The position numbers and the translations under genes are program-made. Under the pieces are notes generated by a model. The model made no database searches. It was not told where the DNA came from and saw only the letters and a program-made list of their open reading frames with translations. A stretch of 64,000 nt of DNA, from sequence record SRR20825006_483, one strand, 5' to 3'. Of the stretch, positions 31,639 to 59,557 are shown piece by piece (the first letter of the stretch is position 1; every line of letters starts with the position of its first letter).

Positions 31639-31655
31639 TTGGCACACTCGTTGCA
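31639..31655 (+). promoter_or_regulatory. Sigma54 (-24/-12) promoter for the hsp20 pair
   Basis: TTGGCACACTCGTTGCA, an exact match to TGGCAC-N5-TTGCA, about 105 bp upstream of the ATG. Confidence 0.8.
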
Positions 31656-43744: not shown

Positions 43745-44671
43745 ATGCCCATCGAATCTCTTCGCTTGTTGTTGGTCGAAGACAATGACTTGGATGCGAT
43801 GTTCATCACACGGGTGTTCCAACGCTCCAAGATGTTCGATGCCGAGATCGTTCGAGCGTGTTCGCTCAGTGAAGCTCTTGAAAAGACAGAACAATCGGAC
43901 TTCGACGTTGTCCTGCTGGATTTAGGGTTGCCTGACAGCAGCGGACTGCAATCAATCCGCGCGATTCGGGAACGAGTCACATCGATTCCTATCGTTGTCC
44001 AAACCGGCGACGATCGAGTCGAAACCGGGTTCGCCGCAATCGAAGCGGGCGCTCAAGACTTTTTATCCAAGAACGACTTGAAGGATCACTTGCTGACGCG
44101 ATTGACGATCCATGCCATTCTGCGTCAGCGTCAAATGCTGGAACTTCAAGAGGCTTCTCACATCGACTCAATGACGGGAATCGCCAATCGACGCCGCTGT
44201 GATATTGAATTCCAAACCCGGTTGGAGTTGCTTTCACAAAGCGGTGTTCCGTTTTGCGTTGCCATCGTTGACATTGATTGTTTTAAATCGATCAATGATT
44301 CCGGCGGTCACGATTTGGGTGACCACGTCATCTGCAAAGTCGGTCAAGAACTTCGTGAAATCAGCCGGCCCGATGACCTGGTGGCTCGGATCGGTGGCGA
44401 GGAGTTCGCAATCATCTTTACAAACACGTCGATTGATGAACTCGGAACGCTTCAGCAGCAACATCGAAAGGCGGTTGAGCGACTGGACTTTCACCCCGAA
44501 AACATCAGGGTGACTGTCAGTGTTGGTGGCACATGCGTGCTGGCTTCTGATGACAGCCGTTCTGCTTTTCGCCGAGCGGACTTGGCCTTGTACGCCGCAA
44601 AGAAAAACGGACGCAATCAATGCAAGATCGAGACCGCCATTCGGCCCGCGTGCAGCGGCCAGATTGCTTAA
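43745..44671 (+). CDS. Response regulator with diguanylate cyclase (REC-GGDEF)
   Basis: LLVEDN, LLDLGLPD; DIDCFKSIND, RPDD I-site, GGEEF, ADLALYAAK..GRN. Confidence 0.92.
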   Translation: MPIESLRLLLVEDNDLDAMFITRVFQRSKMFDAEIVRACSLSEALEKTEQSDFDVVLLDLGLPDSSGLQSIRAIRERVTSIPIVVQTGDDRVETGFAAIEAGAQDFLSKNDLKDHLLTRLTIHAILRQRQMLELQEASHIDSMTGIANRRRCDIEFQTRLELLSQSGVPFCVAIVDIDCFKSINDSGGHDLGDHVICKVGQELREISRPDDLVARIGGEEFAIIFTNTSIDELGTLQQQHRKAVERLDFHPENIRVTVSVGGTCVLASDDSRSAFRRADLALYAAKKNGRNQCKIETAIRPACSGQIA

Positions 44672-44677
44672 GTTCGC

Positions 44678-46018
44678 TTAAACGCGGATTCCGAGTTTTG
44701 CTTCCATTTGCTCCAGCGAGATGCCCTTGGTTTCAGGCAACATCGTGATGACCCAAAGTCCTTGCAGGACCATCATGAAGCAGAAAAAGCCAAAGATGGC
44801 AGCGGGATGAAACGTCTCCACCACGGCCGGAAAAACAAGCGTCAGCAATGCCGCAAAGATCCAGTGCGTGAAGCTTCCCAGCGATTGACCCGCGGCACGA
44901 TGCTCGTTGGGAAAGACTTCTGAGATCAGCACCCAAATGACCGCACCCTGCCCCATCGCGTGCGATGCGATGAAGGCGAAAATGCATGCGGGAACAATGC
45001 TAAATGTTTCGGATTGAAAGGCGTAGGCGCACGTCCCCAGCGACAGGATGTAGCCCGCCGAACCAATCAGTAGCAACGTGCGACGACCCAGTCGGTCGAT
45101 CAAATACAAGCCCACAAAGGTGAAGATCAGGTTGGTGATACCAATGCCGATCGATTGCAAAAGAGCGGCTTGTTCGCCCATACCGGCCAATTCAAAAATT
45201 CGCGGTGAGAAGTATAGAACGGCATTGATTCCAGAAAGCTGATTGAAAAACGCGACGAGGAATGCAATGGATATGGGAGTGAATAGTCGACGGCTCCAAA
45301 ACGGTTCCGCGGGAGTCAGGTCCGACTCGGCACGGAGAGAGGCGACAATTTCATCCACCGTCCCTTGCACCTCTTCATGGGACGCTTCTGGACGTAGTTG
45401 TTTCAGAACCGACATACCGGCCGCTTGGTCTTTCTTGACCGCGATCAACCATCGAGGGCTCGATGGCAACGAAATGCACATGACGGTGAAGATCAAAGCG
45501 GGGATCGCTTCCACCGCCAACATCCATCGCCAAGCATTCTCGTTACCCCAGGTGCCAATCAGATAATTGGACGCGAACGCGACCATGATTCCAAAGACGA
45601 TGTTGAATTGAAACAATCCAGTCAAAGTCCCGCGATGTTTCGGTGGCGAGATTTCGGAGATGTATAGCGGAGCCGCGACGGTAGAAATTCCAACGCCTAA
45701 GCCGCCGATGAAGCGAGCGATCATGAACGAGAAAACGTCTGTCGCAAAACCTGACCAAATCGCCGAAACCAAGTACAGAATCCCGATCCAGAGCAACGTC
45801 TTTTTGCGTCCGAATTTGTCAGTTGGCCAACCGCCGACCAAGGATCCGATGACGGTCCCCCACAACGCGGCGCTCAGGGCAAGACCGTGTTGGAAATCAC
45901 CCAGCGCCCACAGACCCTGGATGGCTTTTTCAGCTCCGGAAATAACGACTGTGTCAAAGCCGAACAGAAACCCCGCCAAGGACGACGTCAAACTCCACAG
46001 GAAAACACGCTGATTCAA
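44678..46018 (-). CDS. Sugar porter family MFS transporter
   Basis: GFLFGFDT, DKFGRK, PLYISEISP..RG, QLSGINAVLY, WVLISEVFP, PETKG; TTG start. Confidence 0.92.
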   Translation of the reverse strand: MNQRVFLWSLTSSLAGFLFGFDTVVISGAEKAIQGLWALGDFQHGLALSAALWGTVIGSLVGGWPTDKFGRKKTLLWIGILYLVSAIWSGFATDVFSFMIARFIGGLGVGISTVAAPLYISEISPPKHRGTLTGLFQFNIVFGIMVAFASNYLIGTWGNENAWRWMLAVEAIPALIFTVMCISLPSSPRWLIAVKKDQAAGMSVLKQLRPEASHEEVQGTVDEIVASLRAESDLTPAEPFWSRRLFTPISIAFLVAFFNQLSGINAVLYFSPRIFELAGMGEQAALLQSIGIGITNLIFTFVGLYLIDRLGRRTLLLIGSAGYILSLGTCAYAFQSETFSIVPACIFAFIASHAMGQGAVIWVLISEVFPNEHRAAGQSLGSFTHWIFAALLTLVFPAVVETFHPAAIFGFFCFMMVLQGLWVITMLPETKGISLEQMEAKLGIRV

Positions 46019-46144
46019 TTTTGATTGCCCGATGTTGGAACGTTGCTCGTCGGAGGCACGCTGCTCAACCGCCGTGCCGCCGCGCCAATGATTTCGCGCC
46101 GACCGAGCGTTTGCGTGCCCGCCGTTCCAAAGTCTAGCAAGACT

Positions 46145-47602
46145 TCATTCGGGTATGTTCACCACTGTGGATGAGTGTCCATGGGATGCGGCATTGGCTG
46201 GTTCGCCATCAGGCGGAGTGTCGTGGCGCAAACGCGTCAGTTCCTTCGCGGCGTGATAACGCGAAGCGATTCCCGGTTGTGGGTACAAACCGCCACCAAG
46301 CAGTAACAACGTCAGCAGCAGAATCGCGAAACGTTCAGCAGGGCGAGCCCGCATCGAAACCAAAGTTCGATTTTCGCGACCGGTGAAAACTCGGAAATAG
46401 GCGAGCAACACCGCGATGCCGCATAACGCCGTTGCGATCACCACCATCGTCCCAACCAACGGGTAAACCTCGACCGCGCCTTCGATCAGTAGTTCCATTC
46501 CAACGAACCCGATCGTTGCAGGGAATCCAATTGATGCGAGTCCGGTCAGCAGAAAGAATCCTGCAAGCATCGGCATTTGTGCGTAGAGACCGTGGAACTC
46601 GTCCAACGAAAAACGAGAGATTCTCGCTTCGATGCATCGCAACGTGATCCCAAATCCGGTCAAGGACATGGCCACCGACAACCACAAACTTAACGCACCG
46701 GTCAGTCCGGTAGGTGTGACCAGTTCCAGTCCAACCAAAATCAACGAAGACTGAGACAGAAGCAAGAAGCAGAACATTCGGCGAGCGTCCGATTGCACCA
46801 ACGCCATCGCACCGGCATACACCGCCGTGAACAAGGATAAAACCGCGATGCTTTGCAACGCCCACGAAGGAGCAATCGGCAAAACCAATCGCATCACCGC
46901 GTAAGCACCCACCAAAGGAGTTGTGTGCAAAATCGCGGTGCCAAAGGTGGCCTTTTCAAACAGATCCGTCATCCACAAGTGCAACGGGAAAATGCCACTT
47001 CGAAGCAGACCCGCCGCGGTCAGCAACGCACCTGGAATCAGAATGGCGGTGGTGCCGGAGTCGACCAACGTCAACCACCCATAACCAACGACCAACAACC
47101 CAGCGAACAGGCCCATGTGCAAACAATAAATCCGTGTACACCGCTGGCGACGTCGCAGTTCCAAGAAAGGCGGAATGGTGGAGGCGATCAACAATGCAAT
47201 CAATGCCCATGATGCGCGACAACTGAACGTTGCCAACACCAACGATTCTGAAATCAATGCCAACTCAAGCGAGAAACGTGGTGCCTTTGTGCGAAGTGTT
47301 GATAGCACAATGACCATGAAAATCAACGCTGCCAACGGAAGTTGAAATGCACTCAGTTCGTCAATCACGAAAACATCCGGCGGAAAGATCCAGCTCAGAA
47401 ATTGCCAGTGGTCGTGAGCTTCGAATGCGCCGACCATGGTGAAGTCGACCAGTTCGCCGATCGTCAACAACAATGTCACGATGCAGATGACAACCGTGTC
47501 CCGCAACGCGCGTTCACTGTTGCTGCGGAGTTGCAACCAGACGGCGCCGAGCAGTGGAACGAGAATCGAACATTCGATCCAGGGAAAGTGCAGTTCAGAC
47601 AA
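46145..47602 (-). CDS. NuoM/HyfF-like proton-conducting membrane subunit, third gene of the DAB operon
   Basis: About 14 TM helices, RSGIFPLHLW, GAYAVMR, GLASIGFPATIGFVGMELL; 12 bp from the upstream gene. Confidence 0.8.
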   Translation of the reverse strand: MSELHFPWIECSILVPLLGAVWLQLRSNSERALRDTVVICIVTLLLTIGELVDFTMVGAFEAHDHWQFLSWIFPPDVFVIDELSAFQLPLAALIFMVIVLSTLRTKAPRFSLELALISESLVLATFSCRASWALIALLIASTIPPFLELRRRQRCTRIYCLHMGLFAGLLVVGYGWLTLVDSGTTAILIPGALLTAAGLLRSGIFPLHLWMTDLFEKATFGTAILHTTPLVGAYAVMRLVLPIAPSWALQSIAVLSLFTAVYAGAMALVQSDARRMFCFLLLSQSSLILVGLELVTPTGLTGALSLWLSVAMSLTGFGITLRCIEARISRFSLDEFHGLYAQMPMLAGFFLLTGLASIGFPATIGFVGMELLIEGAVEVYPLVGTMVVIATALCGIAVLLAYFRVFTGRENRTLVSMRARPAERFAILLLTLLLLGGGLYPQPGIASRYHAAKELTRLRHDTPPDGEPANAASHGHSSTVVNIPE

Positions 47603-47614
47603 CGATGGGGATCC

Positions 47615-49024
47615 CTATGCGGCGGTGGAGATGTCTTGTGGTGTGTTGTCGTCAAAACCAGACTCATCGGTTTCGACGTTGGAATCAGGTTCCCGCGAGA
47701 GAAAGCGAGTGATCCGTTCTTCCGTTCGATTGCAGAAGAGGAAGAAACCAACGAATGGTCCCGCGATCCAACGATCCAGGGCAATGTCCATGAAGCCTCG
47801 GTCAAACCCGAATCGATAACACCAACGTTGGACTGGTTTTGGCAACCAGCCCACACCTGACCAAGGTTGTTGCTGCAAGCGAGAACCAATTTTGTTCTCG
47901 AGGTCGTTGTAGTCTCGAAGCAGGGTCGGAGCCCTGAGCAACTGCATCGTTCGCAATGTCGCATGCCCCATGATGTGAATGAGCGCGAGGTAACGCAGGC
48001 CCAATCCGATTTCGACGACGATGATTCCGACCTGAGTCAGGGACGCATACGCAAGCGACGTTTTTACGTCGGTTTGCACCCGAGACATCAAGGCGCCTCC
48101 GATGGCCGAAATGACGCCGAGTGAGAGGACCATCACTTGCAATGCGAGTGAAGCTTCCAACAAGGGGCTGAGACGAAGCAACAAATAGGCACCCAAATGA
48201 ACCGACAAAGCCCCGTAAAAAATTGCGCTCGACGGAGTTGGCCCTTCCATCGCGCGCGGCAACCAACCGCTGAATGGAAAGAGTGCCGATTTCCCTGCTG
48301 CACCGATCAGCAACAACGTGCCCACCAAGAGTGCTTGGGATGAAGTCACTGCCGCGGTTCCTTCCGGCCAGATTCCTGAGTTCATCAGACCGCCGAAATC
48401 GCCTTCGCCGACCATGTGATGCATCGTGATCGCGGCAATCAACAAAGCGGCATCCGAGAGCCGATAGATCGTCCAAACGCGTTGTCCATTTCGAACCGGA
48501 TTTTCGCGTTCGTGGAAATAGGCGATCAGCAAGGCAGACGACAATCCCACCATTTCCCATCCAACAAACAATGTTTCAATGGTGCCCGCCAGCGAAGACA
48601 GGACCATCCCGCAGTAGAAGATCGCGTAGAACAAAAAGAACCGAGCAAAGCCTTGTTCGCGATGCAAGTATCGCCGCGTGAACTCTCCGACGACGCCGCA
48701 TAGCACACACGAGAGCATCAAGAACGGAATGCTCAGCCGATCGAAGGTGAACTTCAAATGAAAGTGAAAGGCTTGTTCCGGAATCGTCACCCAATTCCCA
48801 AATTCGATCGGAACGTTTCGGATTCCCGTCGCCAACATCGCGATCAAAATCGCAATCGCAGGAATGAGAGAAAGCAACACCGATGTTTGCGTGAGCCGAA
48901 CCGTCGCTGTTTCACTGAGCGGGCGATTGAGCAGCAAAGTCAACCCCATCACCGCCAGCAGCAGCACGGGGCTGGCAACCACGGCGGTGCCCAGCACATG
49001 AAAGAAAATGTCCAGTGTGTTCAT
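47615..49024 (-). CDS. dabB: NuoL-like membrane subunit of a DAB/Mps inorganic carbon transporter
   Basis: [52 protein letters not shown]; overlaps the DUF2309 stop (ATGA). Confidence 0.8.
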
Positions 49025-52000
49025 ACCAAAACCTCCGATGTGTTCGCGTCGGACTCGGATGAACTCACAGGCGTTTTGATCTCAGACTCTTGAATGGTCG
49101 CAAACCCGAGGTGGTCACGTTGGCCTCTGTACCAATGCATCGAGGATTGGACCGTTGGGATCTCGCGATCGGTGACCACGTGCGGTTCAAAATGTCCGTC
49201 GATGTATCTCTGGATGGTGGAGGTCGACGGATCGAGGATGGCGAGCTGAACCCAGTTGCCTTCGACCATTCGCCGGATGCCTTCGTTTTCGGAAATGATC
49301 TTTTCAAGCATCTCCGCAGTGGTTTCGATGACAAACAGAATTCGCATCGGTTCGTGAATCTCAACCATTTGCTGTGAGAGACCCGGTCGCAGATCGCTGG
49401 CCGCACCTGTCATGACGCCGACCATGGACGCCACATTGTGCGGCAACTTCGATCCACACCCGTAACCTTCAACGTCCACCGTCGAGAAGTAGTATTCCAA
49501 GCTGATGCCACCGCAAACCGGAATCGCAGCTTGCAAGATGCGAGTGAGAATGTGTCCGTTTTCGTCATCTACCGTCGGGTCGTATTCGGTCACGAATGCT
49601 CGGCGATCCATGAACAAACCGCGCGACCAGTCACGTCGACCCACCGTGACCAATGCGTTGGTCGCGTGGTTGTATTCCGGTCGCGCTTGCGACAAATCTT
49701 CTGCGCGTTCCTCAACATGTTCGAGAGCTTCCTGAGGCGTCAAATCCAATGGAGCCGACTCAAACCGGCGGGCTCGTTCATGAGCGTTGCGGGCTCGCGT
49801 TTCGATGACATCCGATTCAATTCGTCGGAACAGCTCACGAAGTGACCGCGGCAAGAGATCCAAATCGTAGTAGTCGACGTCATCATTGCAGGTGTTGTGA
49901 TAGGCCCCGACAAAGCGAACTTCATCGGGCAGTTCGATTCCCTGTTCGGCAACGCGGCGGCGCACCCGAGGGTCGTTGGCCATCACAGCGAATGCTCTCG
50001 CGTTGGGGCCACCACGACCTCCACTGCAGGCACCACAGTTGTAAGCGGATTCGTGCGGGTTGTTCAGGCTGCCGCTGCCATGACCAAAGAACACGATGAT
50101 GGGCGGGAAGGCATCGACCATGCCGATGTCTTGCAATATGCGGACGACAATTTGGGACATCTCATCGAGGCTGTAACCCATCGACGCCGGATCGGAACCA
50201 GGGTCATCGGCCAGTCGTTCGAGATGCAGCTCAGTTGCTGGCGGACGAACCAAGCTTCCCATCGATTCGCGAATCTGTGATGTCAAACGAGGTGCCAAGA
50301 TGCGAGCGACCATCGGCACCGTCGCGATGGCGCCAAACAAACCAGTGACCCAGCCGCCAATCAACGTCCGTGAGTTTTGATGAACTTGGTGAGCGAACCA
50401 ACCCAGCCGTCGTCGCCGAACTGCACGTCGTTCACCGGCGGCCATCGAAGAAAACAACGGTTCTTCGCGGACGTAGTGTTGTGGTTTTACGATCGCCGGA
50501 CAAAGAGGGCGGAAGCTTGCGTGATCGGCACCCTGGTAGTACATCGCCACGGCAAAGAATCCGGCTGCCGATGCGGTGCGGCAATCCGGAGCGACCTCTT
50601 CCAGATGCCGCCGGAATGATTCTTCGCGGTCGTCGATGCAGAAAATCGCGGCGTAAGCTGGACGTCGTCGCGAATTTGTCGCGAGCTCACGTCGGCGACG
50701 AGAGTGAATTGAAATCGCATCGAGTGCCTGGTTGGCGTAATGGCGTTCGTAGGCGGCATGCAACAACCGGCGGCGATCCAATGACGCGAATGATTCGATT
50801 TCGGTTATCAAGCATCGCCATTGAGCGGACGACATGTTCAGCATCTGCTCGGGAGTCCAGCCTCCCAATTGAGCCAGCTGAAAAACCGTGTGGGTGCGGG
50901 AACGCACGGAGGACGCGGACCGGACGTCCGCCGTGTTCAACGCCAGTCGAAGGATCTCGCTCGCGGTTCCGATGTTGAACTTGGCTTTGCCGAAGTGCTC
51001 AATGGCGTGCGCGAGCAAAATCAAACGGATGGCCAAGTACTCGTTGAGAGATCCCTCGGGGATTGGATTCGCTAAGAATGGACTGTTTGTTTCCATCTGC
51101 CAAATCATTCCTGCCCAACCTCTCAGCGAGAGCAGACACTCGGACAGAAAACCTTCGCACTCATTGTTCGAAATACCCATTCGTTCCAGCGACTGTTCAA
51201 TACTCTGGATGGCATCCCAATCCGGCGACTGGACTTCACGTAGCGACGCGTCGACATGTTTCATCCAGTCCGCACGGATCGCCCACCGACCCAAGTACAA
51301 ATCGGCGAACGCTTTGGCGAAGCCGTTTTCCCGCTCGGGCAGCTTCCAATCCGCGAACCCCTGGTCGAGGAAGCAGCCACAAAAACGAATCAGGACGTCA
51401 TCAATCTTCGTCTTCAGATCAATGCCAAGTTCACCCCGCATCAATCGATGGAGCGAATCATTGCTTGCCGTCTTGGGTGGTTGAACCTCTGCTTTCTCAA
51501 CGCCCTGTTGGCAAGTCTCCCACAACGCGTGCAAGGTGAAGGATTCCCATTGCTGATCATTCCAGCGATGGATTTGGGATTCACCGGTCGCTTTTAAACG
51601 ATCCTGCAGTGGAGCAGGTAGCGGAGATGCCGGATTCGACGATGTGGTGTCCGTGGTGATCGGTTCCAGATGTCGCATCACCCAACCACGTGTTTGGGTG
51701 ATTGTTTTTTCGCGATAGGGCGCGGGAACTTCCTCTCGAAAGCGTTTCAACAATTCGCTCTCGGCCAAGACCCAACTGAGTCCTGATTCGGGCATGGGTT
51801 GCAGTTCGGTCTGCAACATTGACAAACGCAGCGTGTAGCGAGTCCCAAATGTCGCCACCAATTTGTCGGCGTCATCCTGCAAGTCAGCCATCAAGACTTC
51901 GCGAAGATCCTCGCGGCTGATACGACCCCGCAAAAGCTCTTGGTGGTAGCGTTCCTCGCTGAGATAGGGTTCGCAACCAAATCGTCGTCCACCCTCGATC

Positions 52001-52242
52001 ACTGCTTTCTCGAAAGGCAGATCTTCGAAAGCGTGCAGGGTGTTGTGGTGGACGAATACTGAGATAGGGCCCTGCGCAGGCAAAAAGTGACGAGCGTGTT
52101 CGATTGCTTGCAGGACGTTTGTGGCTTGATGTGAAGTGTTTGGTTGAGTGTCCTTGTGAAAGGTGGGAAGTGGTGATTTGAGACGGGTTTGCTGATTGTT
52201 GACTGGTGCGTGGTTTTGGCTCGACGTGTTGCCAGAGCTCAT
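49021..52242 (-). CDS. dabA: DUF2309 (DabA/MpsB) beta-carbonic-anhydrase-like subunit of an inorganic carbon pump
   Basis: [74 protein letters not shown]; Cys/His/Cys zinc ligands intact. Confidence 0.9.
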
Positions 52243-52325
52243 CGAGCTTTGTAAGTCGGTTTCAGTTCATATGGGAAACAGCGAGTTCTGCGGTTGCGTC
52301 CAAGAAAACAGAAGGTCGTTGGGAA

Positions 52326-52342
52326 AGCACGTGTTGTGCCAA
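52326..52342 (-). promoter_or_regulatory. Sigma54 (-24/-12) promoter for the dab operon
   Basis: Minus strand TTGGCACAACACGTGCT (GG at 52340-39, GC at 52328-27), about 85 bp upstream of the dabA ATG. Confidence 0.75.
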
Positions 52343-52451
52343 GGGCGGTTCTGGGTGAAAACGAGTGCGACTGGCGAGCTAAAACGGCGTCAAAAACGAA
52401 GTTTTCTGTTCGCTCACTCCATTTCGCTCGCGTTGGATTCTTCCCGAGGTT

Positions 52452-52490
52452 GTGCAGAATGTTGCACAAAATGTGTGCAAAGCATTGCAC
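52452..52490. promoter_or_regulatory. Tandem palindromic enhancer sites (GTGCA-N6-TGCAC x2)
   Basis: GTGCAGAATGTTGCAC (52452-67) and GTGCAAAGCATTGCAC (52475-90). Confidence 0.7.
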
Positions 52491-52532
52491 GCTGGCCGCG
52501 AATGAACATGACCCTTCAACCACGCAATCTCG

Positions 52533-53912
52533 ATGTTTGACAATCACGATGGCCCCAGCGTCAGGGGATTCGCAGCGGTGCTGGCACTGCTGAGTCTGAC
52601 GGCATTCGCGGTCACCGCGTCCATGTTGTACCACGTGCATCATGAACAAGAAATTTTCGCCAAACTGACCCAGCATTTGCCAAAGAGCGATCTCGAGGCG
52701 GCTCGCGAACTGTCAGGCGAACTGAGTCTACAAGGCGGATTGTTGGTTCTGTTGGGGCTCAACACGATCGGCACCGCGATTGCTTTCGCTTGGGTCGTGC
52801 GAGGTTACCTGACCAGTGAACGGACTTTGGAAGACGTCAAAGTTTATTCAGCGGACGTGCTGGCCAGCATGGATGCCGGAGTGATCACCACCGATCGCAA
52901 CGGACGGATGACCAGTATCAACCCGAGTGGAAAGCAGCTGGTCAGTTGCGACGAAGATCATCTGGGACGAACGCTCGAGTCGCTGGGGAAGCGGCACTCA
53001 CTGCTCGCCGAGATTCGCGAAGACGTCGCGACCTATCATCACCCGATTCGCGACCGCGACTACAACCTCGACAATCAAGGCCATCGTCAAACGCTGCGAG
53101 CCGGATGCACTCTGTTGAGGAATCGCAGAGGTGAGGAAATCGGCACCGTCCTGCACGTGCGTGACGTGTCGGAGCGGGCTTTGATGGAAGAACGTCTCCG
53201 CCGAATGGAACGTTACATGGGGTTGGGGTCACTCGCGGCAGGTTTGCAGCACGAGATCAAGAATCCGCTCAGTGCCCTGTCCCTGCATATCCAGTTGCTT
53301 TGCGAACGATTGGAAACGACCACGCAGGACGCGGAAGTCGACGAACTGCTAGACGTTTTGCACACGGAGATCCGCCGTATCAACGACGTCTTGGACGGGT
53401 TCCGCAACTACGCCTCCACCAACCAAGTCGGTCGAACTTCCGTGGACGTGGCGATTTTGATTGAACGATTGGTGCGTTTGCTGCGTCCGCAGGCTGAGCA
53501 GCAATCGGTGAAGCTGGACGTGCAGCTACCCGCTGAAATGGTGGGACTGATTGAGGGTGATTCCGTCGGTCTCGAACAAGTCCTGCTGAACTTGGCGCTC
53601 AACGGAATGGCAGCGATGACTGATGGAGGCAAGCTCACCTTCCGGCTCAGTCGCCAGGACGAGTTCGTTCGGATCGATGTGCGGGACGACGGCATCGGTA
53701 TTCCCGAAGAAATTCGGTCCCAAATTTTTGACCCTTACTTCACGACTCGCAACAACGGCACTGGCATGGGGCTGGCTTTGTGTGACAAGATCGTTCGTCA
53801 GCACGATGGTAGCATCGATTTTCGGGTGATTGAGAACTCCAATCCCGACTCCGACCATTCCGTATTGGGTACCGAGTTCACGGTCCTCCTTCCAATGAGT
53901 CAATCAGCATGA
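52533..53912 (+). CDS. Membrane sensor histidine kinase (2 TM, PAS, HisKA, HATPase; NtrB-like)
   Basis: Two TM helices, PAS (GVITTD..INP..RDVSER), LQHEIKNPL, QVLLNLALN, DDGIGI, FDPYFTT, GTGMGL. Confidence 0.92.
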   Translation: MFDNHDGPSVRGFAAVLALLSLTAFAVTASMLYHVHHEQEIFAKLTQHLPKSDLEAARELSGELSLQGGLLVLLGLNTIGTAIAFAWVVRGYLTSERTLEDVKVYSADVLASMDAGVITTDRNGRMTSINPSGKQLVSCDEDHLGRTLESLGKRHSLLAEIREDVATYHHPIRDRDYNLDNQGHRQTLRAGCTLLRNRRGEEIGTVLHVRDVSERALMEERLRRMERYMGLGSLAAGLQHEIKNPLSALSLHIQLLCERLETTTQDAEVDELLDVLHTEIRRINDVLDGFRNYASTNQVGRTSVDVAILIERLVRLLRPQAEQQSVKLDVQLPAEMVGLIEGDSVGLEQVLLNLALNGMAAMTDGGKLTFRLSRQDEFVRIDVRDDGIGIPEEIRSQIFDPYFTTRNNGTGMGLALCDKIVRQHDGSIDFRVIENSNPDSDHSVLGTEFTVLLPMSQSA

Positions 53913-55276
53913 ACCGCAGCGATTTTTCGGTACTGATCGTCGATGATGAACCCAACATTCGTTCGGGGCTTCAGAAGGGATTGGTCAATGAAGCGGATCG
54001 AATCGAAACCGCAGCCGACGCTGAACAAGGTTTGGCAACGTTTGAATCAGGTGTTTACCAATTGGTGATTGCCGACGTTCGGCTGGGTGGTGGCATGGAC
54101 GGGATCGAATTGCTGGGGCGAATTCGGCACATCGATCCGGAGGTCGCCGTCATCGTCATCACCGCCCACGGCACAGTTGAAACCGCCGTCGATGCGATGC
54201 GTGCCGGCGCGTTTGATTTCATCTCCAAACCGCTCGATTTGAATTTGGTTCGGCAACAGGTTCGGAAAGCCCGAGAGCACCGAGAGCTGCGTCAAGAAAA
54301 CCAGTCTCTGCGAACTCGATTGGCCGACGCCGGTGAGTTGTCAAACATCATCGGTCAGTGTGCCGCGATGCAGGACGTATTTCATCAAATCCGACAGGTC
54401 GCCGCGACCGAAGCCACGGTGATGATCCAGGGAGAGAGCGGTTCGGGCAAAGAATTGGTGGCGCGAGCGTTGCATGATCTGAGCGACCGAAGCGGTGGAC
54501 CATTCGTGGCGGTCAATCTGGGCGCGATGCCCGAGACACTTCTTGAGAGCGAGTTGTTTGGCCACGAAAAAGGATCATTCAGCGGCGCTTCGCGGCAAAA
54601 GCCAGGCTGTTTTGAGCAAGCGACCGGTGGGACTTTGTTTCTCGACGAAGTGACGGAGATGTCAGCGAAAAGCCAAGTGGATTTGCTGAGGGTGTTGGAG
54701 TCACGTCGTTTCACGCGAGTCGGCGGAGAGAAGTTGCTGGAAACGGACGTGCGAGTGGTTTCCGCCACCAACAAATCGGTGCCCGAGTTGATTCAAGACG
54801 GTTCCTTTCGGGAGGATCTTTACTATCGACTGAATGTCATTCCGATCGAAGTGCCGTCGCTTCGTCAGCGTCGCGATGACATCCCTTTGTTGATTGAACA
54901 CTTCCTTCAACATTTCTGTTCGCGTCATGGTCGCCCGATGAAGCAGATTGCTCCGGATGCCATGCGTGTGCTGGTTGGTGCCCAGTGGCCGGGGAACGTC
55001 CGGCAGCTTCGCAATTTGGTCGAGCGATTGGTGGTGACTCACACCGGCGACGTGATCGATTCAAACGAACTACCCACCGATTTGCAGCCGGCCATGACGG
55101 ATCGCGGGGTCAAGACGCTGCCGGCCTCGCTCAGCGAAGCGGTCGAAAACTGCGAACGTGAGATGATCTCGACCATTCTGGCCGAATGCGATTTTCATCG
55201 AGAAAACACGGCCAAGCGGCTCGGTGTCAGCGTCCGGACACTCCACTACAAAATGGGTCGCTACGGTCTGCACTGA
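53909..55276 (+). CDS. Sigma54-dependent NtrC-family response regulator (REC-AAA+-HTH)
   Basis: VDDE, IADVR, GESGSGKEL, ESELFGHEKGSFSGA, GTLFLDE, FREDLYYRLNV, WPGNVRQL, C-terminal HTH TAKRLGVSVRTLHYK. Confidence 0.93.
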   Translation: MNRSDFSVLIVDDEPNIRSGLQKGLVNEADRIETAADAEQGLATFESGVYQLVIADVRLGGGMDGIELLGRIRHIDPEVAVIVITAHGTVETAVDAMRAGAFDFISKPLDLNLVRQQVRKAREHRELRQENQSLRTRLADAGELSNIIGQCAAMQDVFHQIRQVAATEATVMIQGESGSGKELVARALHDLSDRSGGPFVAVNLGAMPETLLESELFGHEKGSFSGASRQKPGCFEQATGGTLFLDEVTEMSAKSQVDLLRVLESRRFTRVGGEKLLETDVRVVSATNKSVPELIQDGSFREDLYYRLNVIPIEVPSLRQRRDDIPLLIEHFLQHFCSRHGRPMKQIAPDAMRVLVGAQWPGNVRQLRNLVERLVVTHTGDVIDSNELPTDLQPAMTDRGVKTLPASLSEAVENCEREMISTILAECDFHRENTAKRLGVSVRTLHYKMGRYGLH

Positions 55277-55279
55277 ATC

Positions 55280-55316
55280 GTGCAATTCTTTGCAGGTTTC
55301 ACGCAATCGTTTGCAC
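55280..55316. promoter_or_regulatory. Second tandem enhancer pair (TGCA-N6-TGCA x2) upstream of sulP
   Basis: GTGCAATTCTTTGCAG (55280-95) and ACGCAATCGTTTGCAC (55301-16); same motif as 52452-52490. Confidence 0.7.
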
Positions 55317-55446
55317 GTCCACGTCGCGGATGTGCAGCCGAAGCGGCAACTCTCTGCGTTTTCCAAAAAAACGAAATAGGTTTCGCCGCGGAAAACGCTG
55401 GCAAAACGAGCGGTCGGTCACCGGTCATGCCAGATGCCAAGTCGGG

Positions 55447-55463
55447 TTGGTACGGCGCCTGCA
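55447..55463 (+). promoter_or_regulatory. Sigma54 (-24/-12) promoter for sulP
   Basis: TTGGTACGGCGCCTGCA (GG at 55449-50, GC at 55461-62), about 60 bp upstream of the ATG. Confidence 0.7.
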
Positions 55464-55523
55464 ATTGAGTGCGTCGGCCTCTGCAATGGCAGAGGTTTTC
55501 ACTCAATTCGCGATGCCGACTTC

Positions 55524-57221
55524 ATGATGAATGCACCTTCGGATTCTTCGACCGCCAGCATGGATACCCCACCCCGCGGTGACATCAGCGGGTTCAAGCG
55601 ATTTCTGAAAGACGATTTGATCGCCGGCGGCTTGGTGTTTTTGATCGCCCTGCCACTGTGTTTGGGGATCTCACTCGCCTCCGGGTTCCCCGCGATTGCC
55701 GGTGTGTTCACCGCGATCGTCGGTTCGATCCTGACGACCTTTTTGAGCAACAGCGAGCTCACCATCAAAGGTCCCGCGGCTGGGATGATCGTGATCGTAC
55801 TGGGTGCCGTGAATAGCTTCGGCTACACCGCCGGAGTGGACCCCGTCGCAGACATGCAAGCGTACAAAATGGCGCTCGCCGTCGGTGTTGTGGCCGGTTT
55901 GGTTCAGATCGCATTCGGCTTGCTACGAGCTGGCATTCTCGGTGACTTCTTCCCGACGGCAGCCGTCCACGGAATGTTGGCGGCGATTGGCGTCATCATC
56001 ATGGTCAAACAACTGCCCATCGTTGTCGGCCAGTCCGCCAGCGGCGAACCGCTTGAAATCTTGCAAGAGCTACCGCACCTCTTGATGAATGCGAATCCCG
56101 AGATCGCATTGATTGGCGGTGTGTCACTGCTGATCCTGTTTGGGTTGGCATTTCTAAAAAGTCGTACCAGCGACGGCTTCATCAACAAGATCCCTGGTCC
56201 GTTGGTGGTTCTGTTGGTCGCAATCCCGATGGGAATGGCGATGAATCTGAGCAGCGACCACACCTACACTCTGATGGGAAAAGAATTCACGGTGGGCGAA
56301 AGCGACTTGGTGACTGTGCCTTTCAACCTGTTTGGTGCGATCACGTTTCCTGATTTTGGTGTCTTCCTCAACAGCGAAACACTTCCCGCTGCTCTGGGCT
56401 GGGTGCTGATGTTTGCGTTGATTGGTTCACTGGAATCGTTGCTCAGCGCTAAAGCAGTCGACATGTTAGATCCCCACAAACGAAAAACCAATCTGGACCG
56501 AGACCTTTGGGCGGTTGGTGTCGGAAACATGGCGGCGTCGTTAATCGGCGGCCTTCCCATGATCTCAGAGATCGTGCGGAGCAAAGCCAACATTGACAAT
56601 CAAGCCAAGACTCGATTCGCGAATATGTGGCACGGAGTCTTCTTATTGGGATTCGTCGCTTTGTTGCCTGGTTTGATCCACAACATTCCGCGAGCGGCGT
56701 TGGCCGCGATGTTGGTCTTCACCGGCTTTCGTTTGGCATCGCCCAGTGAATTCCGAAGTGTGTATCGTGTTGGCCGCGAACAATTGATCATTTTCGCGAC
56801 GACATTGGTTGCCGTCCTCGCCACGGATCTGTTGATCGGAATTGCGATCGGTATTGCGACCAAGTTTGCCATTCACATGATCAATGGAGTTCCTTTGCGA
56901 TCGTTGTTTGTGCCGACGTTGCAATTCGACGAAACGTCCGAAACGGAAGTCAATGTTCATGCAGGCGATTCGGCTGTGTTCAGCAACTGGATTGGTTTTC
57001 GGCGTCAGGTTGTCGAAAAGAGTCTCAAACAAGGCAAGAACTGCACCGTCGATTTCAGCGAAGTTCACTTGATCGATCACAGTGTGATGGAAAAATTGCA
57101 CGAACTCGAAGGCGAATTCGCTCGTGAAGGGATTGAATTGAACGTCGTTGGGATGGATCATCACCAACCGTTCTCACGACACCCGATGGCTGCTCGAAAG
57201 CGATCTCTCGTGAGTCATTGA
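55524..57221 (+). CDS. SulP/SLC26-family anion (probably bicarbonate) transporter with STAS-like C-terminus
   Basis: [66 protein letters not shown]. Confidence 0.9.
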
Positions 57222-57248
57222 TTCGATCCTTTTGCCCCCTTCGACGTC

Positions 57249-57632
57249 ATGACGCGTCTCTTCGCAGGAACACCGTTTGATATTCCTCCGACCTGCGATT
57301 TGTGCGGTCAGAAGGAATCCGAATGCAAATGCACGCCCCAGCAAAAGGCTGAAGCCGAGGCGCAACAGCAACGGGAAGCCGACCGATTGCCGCCGGAAAA
57401 GCAAACCGCACGTGTTCGATTGGATCGACGTAAAGGTGGCCGAACCGTCACGCTGGTCGAAGGTTTGACGTCCCGGGCGAATGATTTACCCGAATTGCTT
57501 GGAAAGCTGCAATCTGCATGCGGTGCGGGTGGGACGGTGAAGAAGGCGGACGACTTCATCGAACTGCAGGGCGACCACGTGGAACGAGTTCGGCAGAAAC
57601 TTGCCGAGATCGGCTATCGACTTAGGAAGTGA
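57249..57632 (+). CDS. yciH: SUI1/YciH translation initiation factor-like protein
   Basis: RVRLDRRKGGRTVTLVEGL, LQSACGAGGTVK, IELQGDH; N-terminal CDLC..CKC. Confidence 0.85.
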   Translation: MTRLFAGTPFDIPPTCDLCGQKESECKCTPQQKAEAEAQQQREADRLPPEKQTARVRLDRRKGGRTVTLVEGLTSRANDLPELLGKLQSACGAGGTVKKADDFIELQGDHVERVRQKLAEIGYRLRK

Positions 57633-58297
57633 TCCGAAGATAGAAGTCGGCGGATGGTTTCCACCCTCGCACGACTCGTTTGGGTGAGATTTTGTTTTGA
57701 TTGCAGATAGCGTTGTTCCTCCGCCAATCGCTGCAACAACCGTTCGTCCTTTCGCAACAGAAACCACGGCCCAAACATCAGGCCGATGGACTCATCCAAG
57801 CCGACCGCGTTTAGCTTCTGATAGACCGGATCATGTGGTGGTCCAAACCGCGAAAAAACCAACACTTCAAAACGCCGTTTGGTGCCGGTGCACTTTTCAT
57901 CCGTTAGCCAATAGCCGTTGTCTCTTGCCCATTGCCGGACCGAGGCGATCGCTTTATTGGGTTGTAAAACGATCTGTTTGGGCAGTCGGTTCGGATGCTC
58001 ACTGAGAATGCGAACAATGGATTGACCGCCCATGCCACAAATGCTCAGTGAATCAATCTCATTTTCCTCGATGACGTCCATTCCATCGCCGAGTCGAACT
58101 TCCGCGTTGAATCGTTCCAACGTGGCGGAGGAATTCCGATACGGTTGCAGTTTGTTCTCCACCGCGATGCCTCGCTCGATTCGGTCGGCTGACAGCAGAG
58201 CGGCAAGCAGATGCCCATGATCCGATCCAATGTCGGCGTGGGTCTTCCCTCGGATTTCTGCCGCAACCAGTTTGAGGCGGGCATCAAGTCGAGGCAT
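57614..58297 (-). CDS. trmK: tRNA (adenine22-N1)-methyltransferase TrmK family
   Basis: RL..VA, ADIGSDHGHL, RLGDG, ICGMGG..IVRIL, VLQPN. Confidence 0.85.
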   Translation of the reverse strand: MPRLDARLKLVAAEIRGKTHADIGSDHGHLLAALLSADRIERGIAVENKLQPYRNSSATLERFNAEVRLGDGMDVIEENEIDSLSICGMGGQSIVRILSEHPNRLPKQIVLQPNKAIASVRQWARDNGYWLTDEKCTGTKRRFEVLVFSRFGPPHDPVYQKLNAVGLDESIGLMFGPWFLLRKDERLLQRLAEEQRYLQSKQNLTQTSRARVETIRRLLSSDHFLSR

Positions 58298-58303
58298 GGC
58301 AGA

Positions 58304-59557
58304 TCAAAGAGTTTGCGTTCGCAGCGCAGCACGATCGTTGAGGAAATCTCGAAGCTCTTGAGCCAATTGGCCCGCGGACTGGGGGCGTTCCTCGGGATCG
58401 TCGGACAGACATCGAGACAGGATGGATTCGAGTTTCGGGTTGAACTTGGGATTGATTTCGGTCGCCGGTCGCGGATCGGTGTTCGCAATCGCATCGATCG
58501 TTTCTTCGCGGCTCAGCGACAGTGCACCGTGCGGGTGCTCTCGAAGCAGAAACAGATAAAGCATCGTTGCGACTGCGTAAAGGTCCGATCGATGATCGAC
58601 GCTATTTGCGTCACCGCGGGCTTGTTCCGGTGACATGTAAAGTGGTGTACCCAGGACAGCGCCATCGTGGGTGCTGTTTGCCGACACTGGTGATTTGGTT
58701 CGGAACATGGATTTGCTCAATCCAAAATCAACCAACTTGGGTTGTTCGTCGGGACCCACCATGATGTTGGATGGTTTGACGTCTCGATGGATCACACCAT
58801 GATCGTGCGCGTGTTGCAATGCATCGCAAACCATCGCCATCATCTCGATGATGCGAGTCGCACGGGGAGATTCCCGAGCGATGTAATTCGCCAAAGACTC
58901 GCCATCGATCAATTCCATCGCGTAGTAAGCAAGGTCGCGTTCTAGATGGCTCGCATAGATGGTTGCGATTCCCGGATGATCCATTTTTCGCATCACCTGA
59001 ATTTCGCGAGCGAACCGTTCGAAGACCAAATCGGTTGCCAGGTCCGCGCGAATGATCTTGATCGCTGCCGGTTTGCCCGAGGCACGATGCATGCCTTTCC
59101 ACACGGTCGCAAAGGCTCCTCGTCCGATCAGATGATCAATGTCGAAGCCTTCGATTTGAGGTTTCGTCCACTTCATCGGTGGAACGGCTTCGACAATCCG
59201 CCTCGCGGCGGTCAGGCGGCTCTTTAAAAGCGGCGCGACAATTGGTTTTGTTAAATAGTCGTCGGCGCCCGCGTCCAAACCCTGAATCATGTCTTCGTCG
59301 CGATCGCGACTGGTGAGCAGAATGATATAGGTGAATGGGTTTTCGGGATCCTGTTTGATCCGGCGGCAGATTTCGACTCCCTCCATCCCCGGCATCAACC
59401 AATCGAGCAACGCCAACCGAGGCGGGTCGTCGGACTGAAGAAGCTCATAAGCCTCGTTCCCATCCGAAGCCAGCTCGATCCGGTAGCCCCAGTTTTCGAC
59501 AGCCGCCGAAATCAGGTTTCGCCAAACTGGATTGTCGTCAGCGATCAGCAATTTCAT
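58304..59557 (-). CDS. Receiver domain fused to a Ser/Thr protein kinase
   Basis: REC: IADDN, LLDWLMP, LLTS, DYLTKP. Kinase: GRGAFATVW, AIKI, HRDVKPSN, DFG, GTPLYMSPEQ. Confidence 0.92.
   Translation of the reverse strand: MKLLIADDNPVWRNLISAAVENWGYRIELASDGNEAYELLQSDDPPRLALLDWLMPGMEGVEICRRIKQDPENPFTYIILLTSRDRDEDMIQGLDAGADDYLTKPIVAPLLKSRLTAARRIVEAVPPMKWTKPQIEGFDIDHLIGRGAFATVWKGMHRASGKPAAIKIIRADLATDLVFERFAREIQVMRKMDHPGIATIYASHLERDLAYYAMELIDGESLANYIARESPRATRIIEMMAMVCDALQHAHDHGVIHRDVKPSNIMVGPDEQPKLVDFGLSKSMFRTKSPVSANSTHDGAVLGTPLYMSPEQARGDANSVDHRSDLYAVATMLYLFLLREHPHGALSLSREETIDAIANTDPRPATEINPKFNPKLESILSRCLSDDPEERPQSAGQLAQELRDFLNDRAALRTQTL

Follow-up and report, generated by a model that had tools for sequence, protein, structure and literature searches.

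A candidate sigma-54/two-component regulon joining a three-subunit DAB complex and a SulP transporter in a marine planctomycete

Introduction

DAB pumps are widespread in heterotrophs and pathogens; the DAB regulators reported so far come, according to excerpts of one source (10.1101/476713), from autotrophs and are of the LysR or Crp/Fnr type. Here we ask how such a pump may be controlled in a marine, non-photosynthetic planctomycete, using a DNA stretch of 64,000 nucleotides (sequence record SRR20825006_483; the whole stretch is called the window below), in which positions 46145 to 57221 hold a dab operon, a divergent pair of histidine kinase and activator genes and a sulP transporter gene. 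What we observe at this locus, namely its gene content, its promoter and enhancer motifs, their rarity and conservation and the conserved linkage of the genes, makes it quite probable to our minds that one two-component system acts on both dab and sulP through sigma-54, with activator binding and sigma-54 dependence as predictions from the DNA letters. The locus is, in other words, a candidate switch for the inorganic-carbon supply of its host.

Results

The three dab genes on the minus strand diverge from the kinase and activator genes on the plus strand, with sulP downstream of the activator:

46145..47602, minus strand: third DAB gene, NuoM/NdhD-like antiporter-type membrane subunit, full-length, 485 aa (PF00361 only, 81 bits)
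47615..49024, minus strand: dabB, shortened NuoL-like subunit, 469 aa (Pfam PF00662 and PF00361)
49021..52242, minus strand: dabA, cytoplasmic beta-carbonic-anhydrase-like subunit, 1073 aa (PF10070, 781 bits)
52533..53912, plus strand: sensor histidine kinase (Pfam PAS_4, HisKA, HATPase_c)
53909..55276, plus strand: NtrC-family sigma-54 activator (Pfam REC, Sigma54_activat, HTH_8)
55524..57221, plus strand: sulP, SulP/SLC26-family anion transporter, 565 aa from ATG 55524 (PF00916, 203 bits)

An initial annotation of this DNA had proposed the same layout, which is borne out by the Pfam domains of the six genes. dabB overlaps the stop codon of dabA. The open reading frame of sulP begins at 55434, upstream of its own promoter (see below), and by alignment with relatives the gene starts at ATG 55524/55527.

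Both transport units are preceded by a predicted sigma-54-type promoter and, further upstream, by a pair of palindromic dyads that we regard as candidate upstream activating sequences (UAS):

52341-52326, minus strand: dab operon promoter, predicted -24/-12 box TGGCACAACACGTGCT, GG-N10-GC spacing
55448-55463, plus strand: sulP promoter, predicted -24/-12 box TGGTACGGCGCCTGCA, GG-N10-GC spacing
52453..52489, unstranded: candidate enhancer (UAS) of the dab operon, dyads TGCAGAATGTTGCA and TGCAAAGCATTGCA, 23 bp apart (TGCA-N6-TGCA at 52453-66 and 52476-89)
55281..55315, unstranded: candidate enhancer (UAS) of sulP, dyads TGCAATTCTTTGCA and CGCAATCGTTTGCA, 21 bp apart (TGCA-N6-TGCA at 55281-94, CGCA-N6-TGCA at 55302-15)

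The boxes, which the initial annotation had placed at the same two units, stand upstream of their genes and on the gene's strand, and have GG and GC 10 nt apart in a TGGCAC-N5-TTGCW-like context; the pattern TGGYAC-N6-TGCW occurs three times in the window against 0.38 expected, a count reached by none of 100 shuffles. From the box positions transcription is predicted to start at about 52315 for dab (leader of about 73 nt) and at about 55474 for sulP. The window holds five exact TGCA-N6-TGCA dyads where 1.34 would be expected, a number that 2 of 100 shuffles attain, and three of the five fall in these two control regions. Two dyads per unit, one of them with a CGCA half-site and 21-23 bp apart, had likewise been described, and only their distance needs correction: measured from the predicted starts, the dyad centres are at about 145/168 bp upstream for dabA and 166/187 bp for sulP, that is about 145-187 bp rather than 110-170 bp. 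The sulP UAS begins 5 bp past the stop codon of the activator gene. The dab dyads are also 44-80 bp upstream of the start codon of the kinase, for which no -24/-12 box was found there in the window.

To see how far this design is kept among relatives, which include Rhodopirellula, Aporhodopirellula and Pirellulaceae records, we compared 12.6-kb regions around dabA orthologues from 20 genomes of the same order. As the genomes are related, the conservation counts are not independent of each other, and since the search pattern itself dictates the half-sites, what carries information is a match at the same distance in every lineage together with spacers that have drifted. Gene order dabA-dabB-nuoM-like is kept in all 20 loci, the nuoM-like gene following dabB throughout. 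Among the 13 loci of the same genus every one has at least one dyad (mostly two to four) upstream of dabA and every one has a -24/-12 box, which follows the strict pattern in 12 and ends in G in the remaining one. The sulP UAS and box are retained in six of six relatives that share the gene order of the window (one box reads CGGCAC...TGCT). Pooling 16 dabA and 8 sulP upstream regions, three more distant Pirellulaceae/Planctomycetales records included, we find a box plus at least one dyad 114-203 bp upstream in 24 of 24. Across 49 distinct sites the dyad consensus is yTGCAA-N4-yTGCAs, the inner positions varying freely; the motif conservation that the initial annotation had proposed to check is thus found, spacer drift included.

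Rearranged loci tell the same story from another side. In one lineage the order is activator-kinase and sulP has become the fourth gene of the dab operon, with neither box nor dyad in the short gap before it, so the predicted co-regulation is reached in two ways, by giving sulP a promoter and UAS of its own or by placing it last in the dab operon. In genome G021 the kinase-activator-sulP block and the dab operon are on different contigs, and in G004 the activator diverges from sulP on a contig other than that of dab. Both dab operons have kept a box with two dyads and both sulP genes a box with one dyad within 260 bp, G004 having a further tandem pair about 565 bp upstream; motifs kept at dab and sulP on separate contigs are what a trans-acting regulon predicts. 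A Pirellulaceae metagenome-assembled genome (L062) has dyads and a -24/-12 box, the latter on the kinase's strand, in front of the kinase-activator operon itself, which suggests that this operon may be positively autoregulated. A second such genome, L064, has a dyad pair upstream of the kinase; no box was found there.

How rare the motifs are was counted in G001, the nearest relative (7.1 Mb; 99% complete), whose proteins at this locus are 99-100% identical to those of the window. The tandem dyad TGCA-N6-TGCA-N(5-12)-YGCA-N6-TGCA, searched as exact matches so that degenerate regulon members may be missed, has three sites in 7.1 Mb against none in the control: one upstream of dabA, one upstream of sulP and a third beside a paralogous activator. 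The genome-wide scan proposed with the initial annotation accordingly returns the two expected targets plus one site next to an RND-linked activator (see below). G001 also encodes RpoN (TIGR02395, 387 bits against a cut-off of 277) and has 16 strong sigma-54 activator domains. In excerpts of a study on Rhodopirellula baltica (PMC2754498) rpoN is named as expressed in stress microarrays, and nothing was found there on the genes discussed here.

At its N-terminus the kinase has a pair of hydrophobic segments separated by a loop of about 35 residues; PAS_4, HisKA and HATPase_c follow, and its best NCBIfam match is AtoS (254 bits against a cut-off of 646). The activator has the architecture of NtrC-family enhancer-binding proteins, with PF00072, PF00158 (233 bits) and PF02954, and scores below the equivalog cut-offs of AtoC (457 vs 714), NtrC (443 vs 559) and ZraR (384 vs 760). 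Of the same-genus genomes, 14 have a dabA orthologue (at least 63% identity), and each of these also has an activator orthologue of at least 71% identity.

DabA covers the whole PF10070 profile (positions 1-747 of 747, cut-off 25 bits) and matches DabA2 (PDB 9rd0_A; E 1.6e-62, phmmer), with only the C-terminal half aligning well. Its residues C535, D537, H721 and C736 align with the zinc-site residues C351, D353, H524 and C539 of DabA2, whose alanine mutants no longer rescue Escherichia coli free of carbonic anhydrase, as stated in excerpts of 10.1101/476713. Given that these residues are kept and that the mutants lose rescue, a CO2-hydrating role predicted for DabA is well founded. DabB matches the DabB2 chain 9rd0_B (E 5e-26) and NuoL/ND5 chains (up to 7e-40), and residues 6-441 of the third subunit align with PDB 6tjv_D, the NADH dehydrogenase subunit 4 (NdhD). 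By its predicted subunits the complex is neither DAB2, which has two, nor DAB1, as its third subunit is full length and NdhD/NuoM-like; a DAB1-type heterotrimer, considered as a candidate, is ruled out by a third protein of 485 aa that has PF00361 and aligns end to end with NdhD/NuoM. In this subunit an arginine stands at the lysine of the NdhD/NuoM motif K-x-P-L-x-P-L-H-x-W, which we take to be the TM7 proton-path residue. G001 has a second DAB of two genes (L056:6585-11259, minus strand), dabB of 537 aa and then dabA of 895 aa, with no tandem dyad of the searched pattern.

SulP belongs to the SulP/SLC26 family by its PF00916 transmembrane domain and a C-terminal STAS-like region that is sub-threshold for STAS_2 (20.9 bits, cut-off 29.2); TIGR00815 covers residues 55-576 with a score below its cut-off. 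Solved SLC26/SulP proteins all match it weakly and at about the same distance, and in the Atlas it neighbours clusters of generic SulP or 'DauA family' proteins. SulP orthologues stand beside the three-gene DAB in 13 of the 20 loci and in three different arrangements. The single beta-carbonic anhydrase match in G001 is the C-terminal domain of a 768-aa fusion with another SulP (L141:2456-4762, minus strand), a predicted fusion by which SulP proteins of this lineage are linked to inorganic carbon. Company with DAB and the fusion together argue for bicarbonate as the substrate, and this genomic context makes import of bicarbonate the most likely function of SulP. A search of G001 for the RuBisCO large subunit found none, which fits a heterotroph and agrees with the heterotrophic host presumed in the initial annotation.

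Anion-selective porin genes (Porin_O_P) adjoin the system in loci of eight genomes, with none in the window, and no -24/-12 box was recognised, by eye or by regular expression, in front of the neighbouring porin genes:

L041:3799-5241, L043, L060/L069, L062:5633-7093: Porin_O_P genes between the dab operon and activator/kinase, or next to sulP-dab
L063:4910-6442, L064:5734-7140, L132:5743-7443, L046:9135-10727: Porin_O_P genes in further loci, likewise in one or other of these positions

Besides the boxes and dyads, the two control regions have a short sequence in common:

52352..52362, minus strand: 11-mer GTTTTCACCCA directly upstream of the dab -24 box, common to the sulP leader
55478..55505, plus strand: sulP leader, a 7-bp hairpin CCTCTGC-AATG-GCAGAGG read from the sequence, then TTTT, overlapping the 11-mer copy GTTTTCACTCA (55495-55505)

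These are the sole copies of GTTTTCACYCA in the window (52352-52362, minus; 55495-55505, plus), where 0.13 would be expected; G001 has 16 copies against 4 in the control, and the 11-mer is kept only among close relatives.

A third near-consensus -24/-12 box of the window, TGGCACACTCGTTGCA at 31640-31655 (plus strand), is intergenic after a pyruvate kinase gene; an HSP20 gene (31732/31763-32187) follows about 90-120 bp downstream and is possibly a sigma-54-dependent small heat-shock gene.

The unit is flanked by a REC-GGDEF protein gene (43745-44671, plus), an MFS sugar porter gene (44678-46018, minus) and a REC-Ser/Thr kinase fusion gene (58304-59557, minus). The sugar porter gene is on the same strand as the nuoM-like gene, 126 bp downstream of it, a position kept in close relatives.

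Discussion

Taken as a circuit, the membrane kinase with its PAS sensor would phosphorylate the adjacent NtrC-type activator, which would bind the tandem TGCA-N6-TGCA dyads about 145-185 bp upstream of both -24/-12 promoters and, through DNA looping and ATP hydrolysis, open sigma-54 holoenzyme at both. From one promoter the three-subunit DAB would be made, in which DabA is predicted to carry out cytoplasmic hydration of CO2 to bicarbonate, with coupling to a flow of cations via the NuoL-like DabB and its full-size NuoM-like partner; from the other would come the SulP anion transporter. Under CO2 scarcity, a possible setting being alkaline, CO2-depleted water at algal surfaces, DAB and SulP may supply bicarbonate to the carboxylases of the heterotroph. 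That the circuit serves this carbon supply, with SulP carrying bicarbonate, is a reading we favour with confidence that modestly exceeds doubt. The initial annotation had gone as far as seeing two mechanistically different carbon uptake routes co-induced by the embedded two-component system: the common promoter and dyad design and the linkage to kinase and activator across rearrangements support the predicted co-induction, SulP being a putative bicarbonate carrier.

A number of observations weigh against the circuit or its purpose, and we discuss them together with the explanations they invite. On the side of the motifs, the genome-wide counts stem from G001 and not from the genome of the window itself, and the -24/-12 pattern alone is not enriched there (44 matches against 96 in the reversed control). 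This would suit the view that the motifs are chance or non-functional sequence and that ordinary promoters transcribe the genes, as would a sigma-70/terminator consensus scan of 45900-57700, which gave nothing informative (one promoter-like match against 4.0 expected; terminators at background level). Yet all 24 upstream regions have kept box and dyad, across rearrangements and with drifting spacers, and this together with a tandem dyad found only three times in 7.1 Mb makes the explanation hardly credible to us. The significance of the motifs comes from position, pairing with dyads and conservation, and the box alone carries no weight. Among dabA loci of other families, furthermore, none of seven has either box or dyads, so that the sigma-54-type control predicted for dab is lineage-specific.

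In another family an OmpR-type response regulator and a HAMP kinase (L044:3399-5695, minus strand) diverge from dabA, replacing the sigma-54 pair, and DAB may be under another type of two-component control there.

On the side of the activator, the sigma-54 contact loop reads GSFSGA and not GAFTGA (the Phe is kept, Thr is changed to Ser), a variant that is stable among orthologues; over 40 locus entries of at least 50% identity the loop is GSFSGA in 19, GAFSGA in 9, GSFTGA in 6 and GAFTGA in 2. Three genomes of the same genus (G002, G011, G014) keep the activator-kinase pair (70-71% identity) among unrelated neighbouring genes and have no three-gene DAB and no SulP orthologue; one dyad is found upstream of their pair, G002 having two that overlap, one with a CGCA half-site. 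In addition, the orphan activator of G001 is 63% identical to that of the window, has a nearly identical C-terminal helix-turn-helix (HTH) and stands by the same dyads: the third tandem site (G001:C1:1245801-1245835, within L055 = G001:C1:1238000-1254000) lies between its gene and a divergent operon for a cytidylate-kinase-like protein, a membrane-fusion protein and an AcrB RND pump. Activators of 61-69% identity adjoin RND operons in five records of other genomes, with dyads in four of the five. The activator family therefore appears to have two branches, one linked to DAB/SulP and one to RND pumps, that would read the same dyad, and cross-regulation, or regulation of dab and sulP by the paralogue, is possible. 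What the initial annotation had called the regulon's own enhancer motif is, in this light, not its own.

These findings bear on whether promoters and dyads are real and the adjacent pair is nonetheless not the regulator, or not the sole one, a paralogue or other protein binding the dyads instead. Such a paralogue, with its nearly identical HTH and a tandem dyad beside its own gene, is at hand in G001, and the three genomes just described lack DAB and SulP while keeping the pair. We judge this very improbable, as the adjacent-type activator goes with dab or sulP in every arrangement seen and is never missing from the 14 same-genus genomes that carry a dabA orthologue, at least six of which (G022, G004, G021, G008, G009, G013) have no second match at the paralogue's 62-63% identity (E<=1e-140).

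Strict one-to-one co-occurrence of the activator with DAB/SulP fails in G002, G011 and G014. One genome of another family encodes activator (58%) and SulP (59%) on one contig and has no DAB.

On the side of SulP, equivalog cut-offs are missed by far for BicA (NF050096; 104 bits vs 880), which rules SulP out as a BicA equivalog, and for DauA (150 vs 614), and in one genome of another family PAPS-reductase (cysH) and CysN/CysC-like genes (L045:8604-11630, plus strand) diverge from dabA-dabB-nuoM-sulP, a hint to sulfate. The same circuit may accordingly be imagined to serve anion uptake or exchange, SulP importing sulfate or another anion, possibly in exchange for DAB-made bicarbonate in an SLC26-like manner, with the porin feeding it in relatives. 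Its top scores, to the generic sulP model and DauA instead of BicA, its best solved relatives, annotated as sulfate transporters albeit all weak matches, and the Porin_O_P genes beside the dab operon or kinase-activator pair would agree with this. We nevertheless consider it unlikely: the cys linkage is seen in only 1 of 20 loci, an energised CO2 hydratase as conserved partner would be left unexplained, and the SulP-carbonic anhydrase fusions of this lineage point to bicarbonate as SulP substrate.

Another purpose that might be envisaged is pH or ion homeostasis, in which CO2 hydration and cation influx by DAB acidify the cytoplasm, SulP disposes of or balances the anion and the kinase senses envelope, pH or ionic stress. 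The membrane subunits of DAB are antiporter-type (PF00361) proteins, the kinase has a short periplasmic loop only and a cytoplasmic PAS domain, and the sister kinase/activator branch beside RND efflux operons (five loci elsewhere plus G001), with the same dyads, suggests an envelope-stress ancestry. Set against this, the DAB complexes tested act, by what excerpts of two sources report (10.1101/476713; PMC13684180), as inorganic-carbon accumulators that rescue E. coli free of carbonic anhydrase, and a homeostatic purpose seems quite improbable to us.

Returning to carbon supply as the preferred purpose, a more specific proposal would make the kinase a dedicated sensor of inorganic carbon (CO2/bicarbonate, or the shift in pH on their depletion), with sigma-54 as the switch for bicarbonate import by a new SulP clade, a new three-subunit DAB with its two full antiporter-like subunits and, in sister lineages, the anion-selective porin of the outer membrane. 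This we put forward tentatively and hold to be rather doubtful; if true, no inorganic-carbon regulon under two-component, enhancer-dependent control would precede it, and CO2 sensing in bacteria would gain a rare molecular handle. Searches of openly available full texts found no paper on sigma-54/two-component control of DAB or on planctomycete DAB, and to this extent the view of such control as undescribed, put forward in the initial annotation, stands. New is the combination of a sigma-54 enhancer regulon with a DAB pump, each being known on its own. With one kinase, one activator, a 14-bp dyad and two promoters the locus is a compact, conserved and tractable circuit, which could show how a non-autotroph senses inorganic-carbon shortage and would rank among the few defined sigma-54 regulons of Planctomycetota. 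For bicarbonate transport it points to an uncharacterised SulP clade as candidate carrier, and for structural work to a DAB variant of three subunits.

How does this system compare with known ones? With NtrB/NtrC sigma-54 systems it has in common a REC-AAA+-HTH_8 activator encoded with its kinase and tandem dyads upstream of GG-N10-GC, and in the glnAp2 paradigm of NtrB/NtrC tandem dyad sites likewise lie 100-200 bp upstream of the promoter. It differs in that no equivalog cut-off is reached, the dyad is TGCA-N6-TGCA, the PAS kinase is membrane-anchored, the contact loop is GSFSGA and the targets are carbon/anion transporters.

DAB2 of Halothiobacillus neapolitanus (9rd0), which excerpts of 10.1101/476713 and PMC13144422 read as an energy-coupled one-way CO2 hydratase, resembles the complex in its PF10070 DabA with the four zinc-site residues and its NuoL-like membrane partner. 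It has two genes and a DabB of 551 aa, whereas here there are three genes, with a DabB of 469 aa, a full-size NuoM-like subunit and a DabA of 1073 aa; and while the H. neapolitanus DAB regulators are of the LysR and Crp/Fnr type in excerpts of 10.1101/476713, the architecture found here is sigma-54-type and the host apparently heterotrophic. DAB1 (DabA-DabB-DabC; cryo-EM of the Thermocrinis albus complex), as far as excerpts of PMC13684180 describe it, also has three subunits with the third at the NuoM position beside NuoL, but its DabC is half as large as NuoM and belongs to no Pfam family, in contrast to the 485-aa PF00361 protein of the window. MpsAB of Staphylococcus aureus is, according to the abstracts (PMC8552792, PMC8567241), likewise a DAB homologue in a heterotroph, where it provides dissolved inorganic carbon in place of a carbonic anhydrase; it is a two-gene system of Firmicutes for which these abstracts describe no sigma-54 control.

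The logic proposed here is also that of the cyanobacterial low-CO2 regulon, in which one signal co-induces a complex-I-like machine that hydrates CO2 and a bicarbonate transporter from a different family. There, however, the host is an autotroph with carboxysomes, the promoters are of the sigma-70 type, the regulators are LysR-type and the CO2 modules belong to other families (CO2-hydrating NDH-1 with CupA). SbtA, BicA and BCT1 are the bicarbonate transporters of cyanobacteria named in excerpts of PMC13684180, and of these BicA (PDB 6ki1) has both the PF00916 fold family and the C-terminal STAS-like region in common with the SulP described here.

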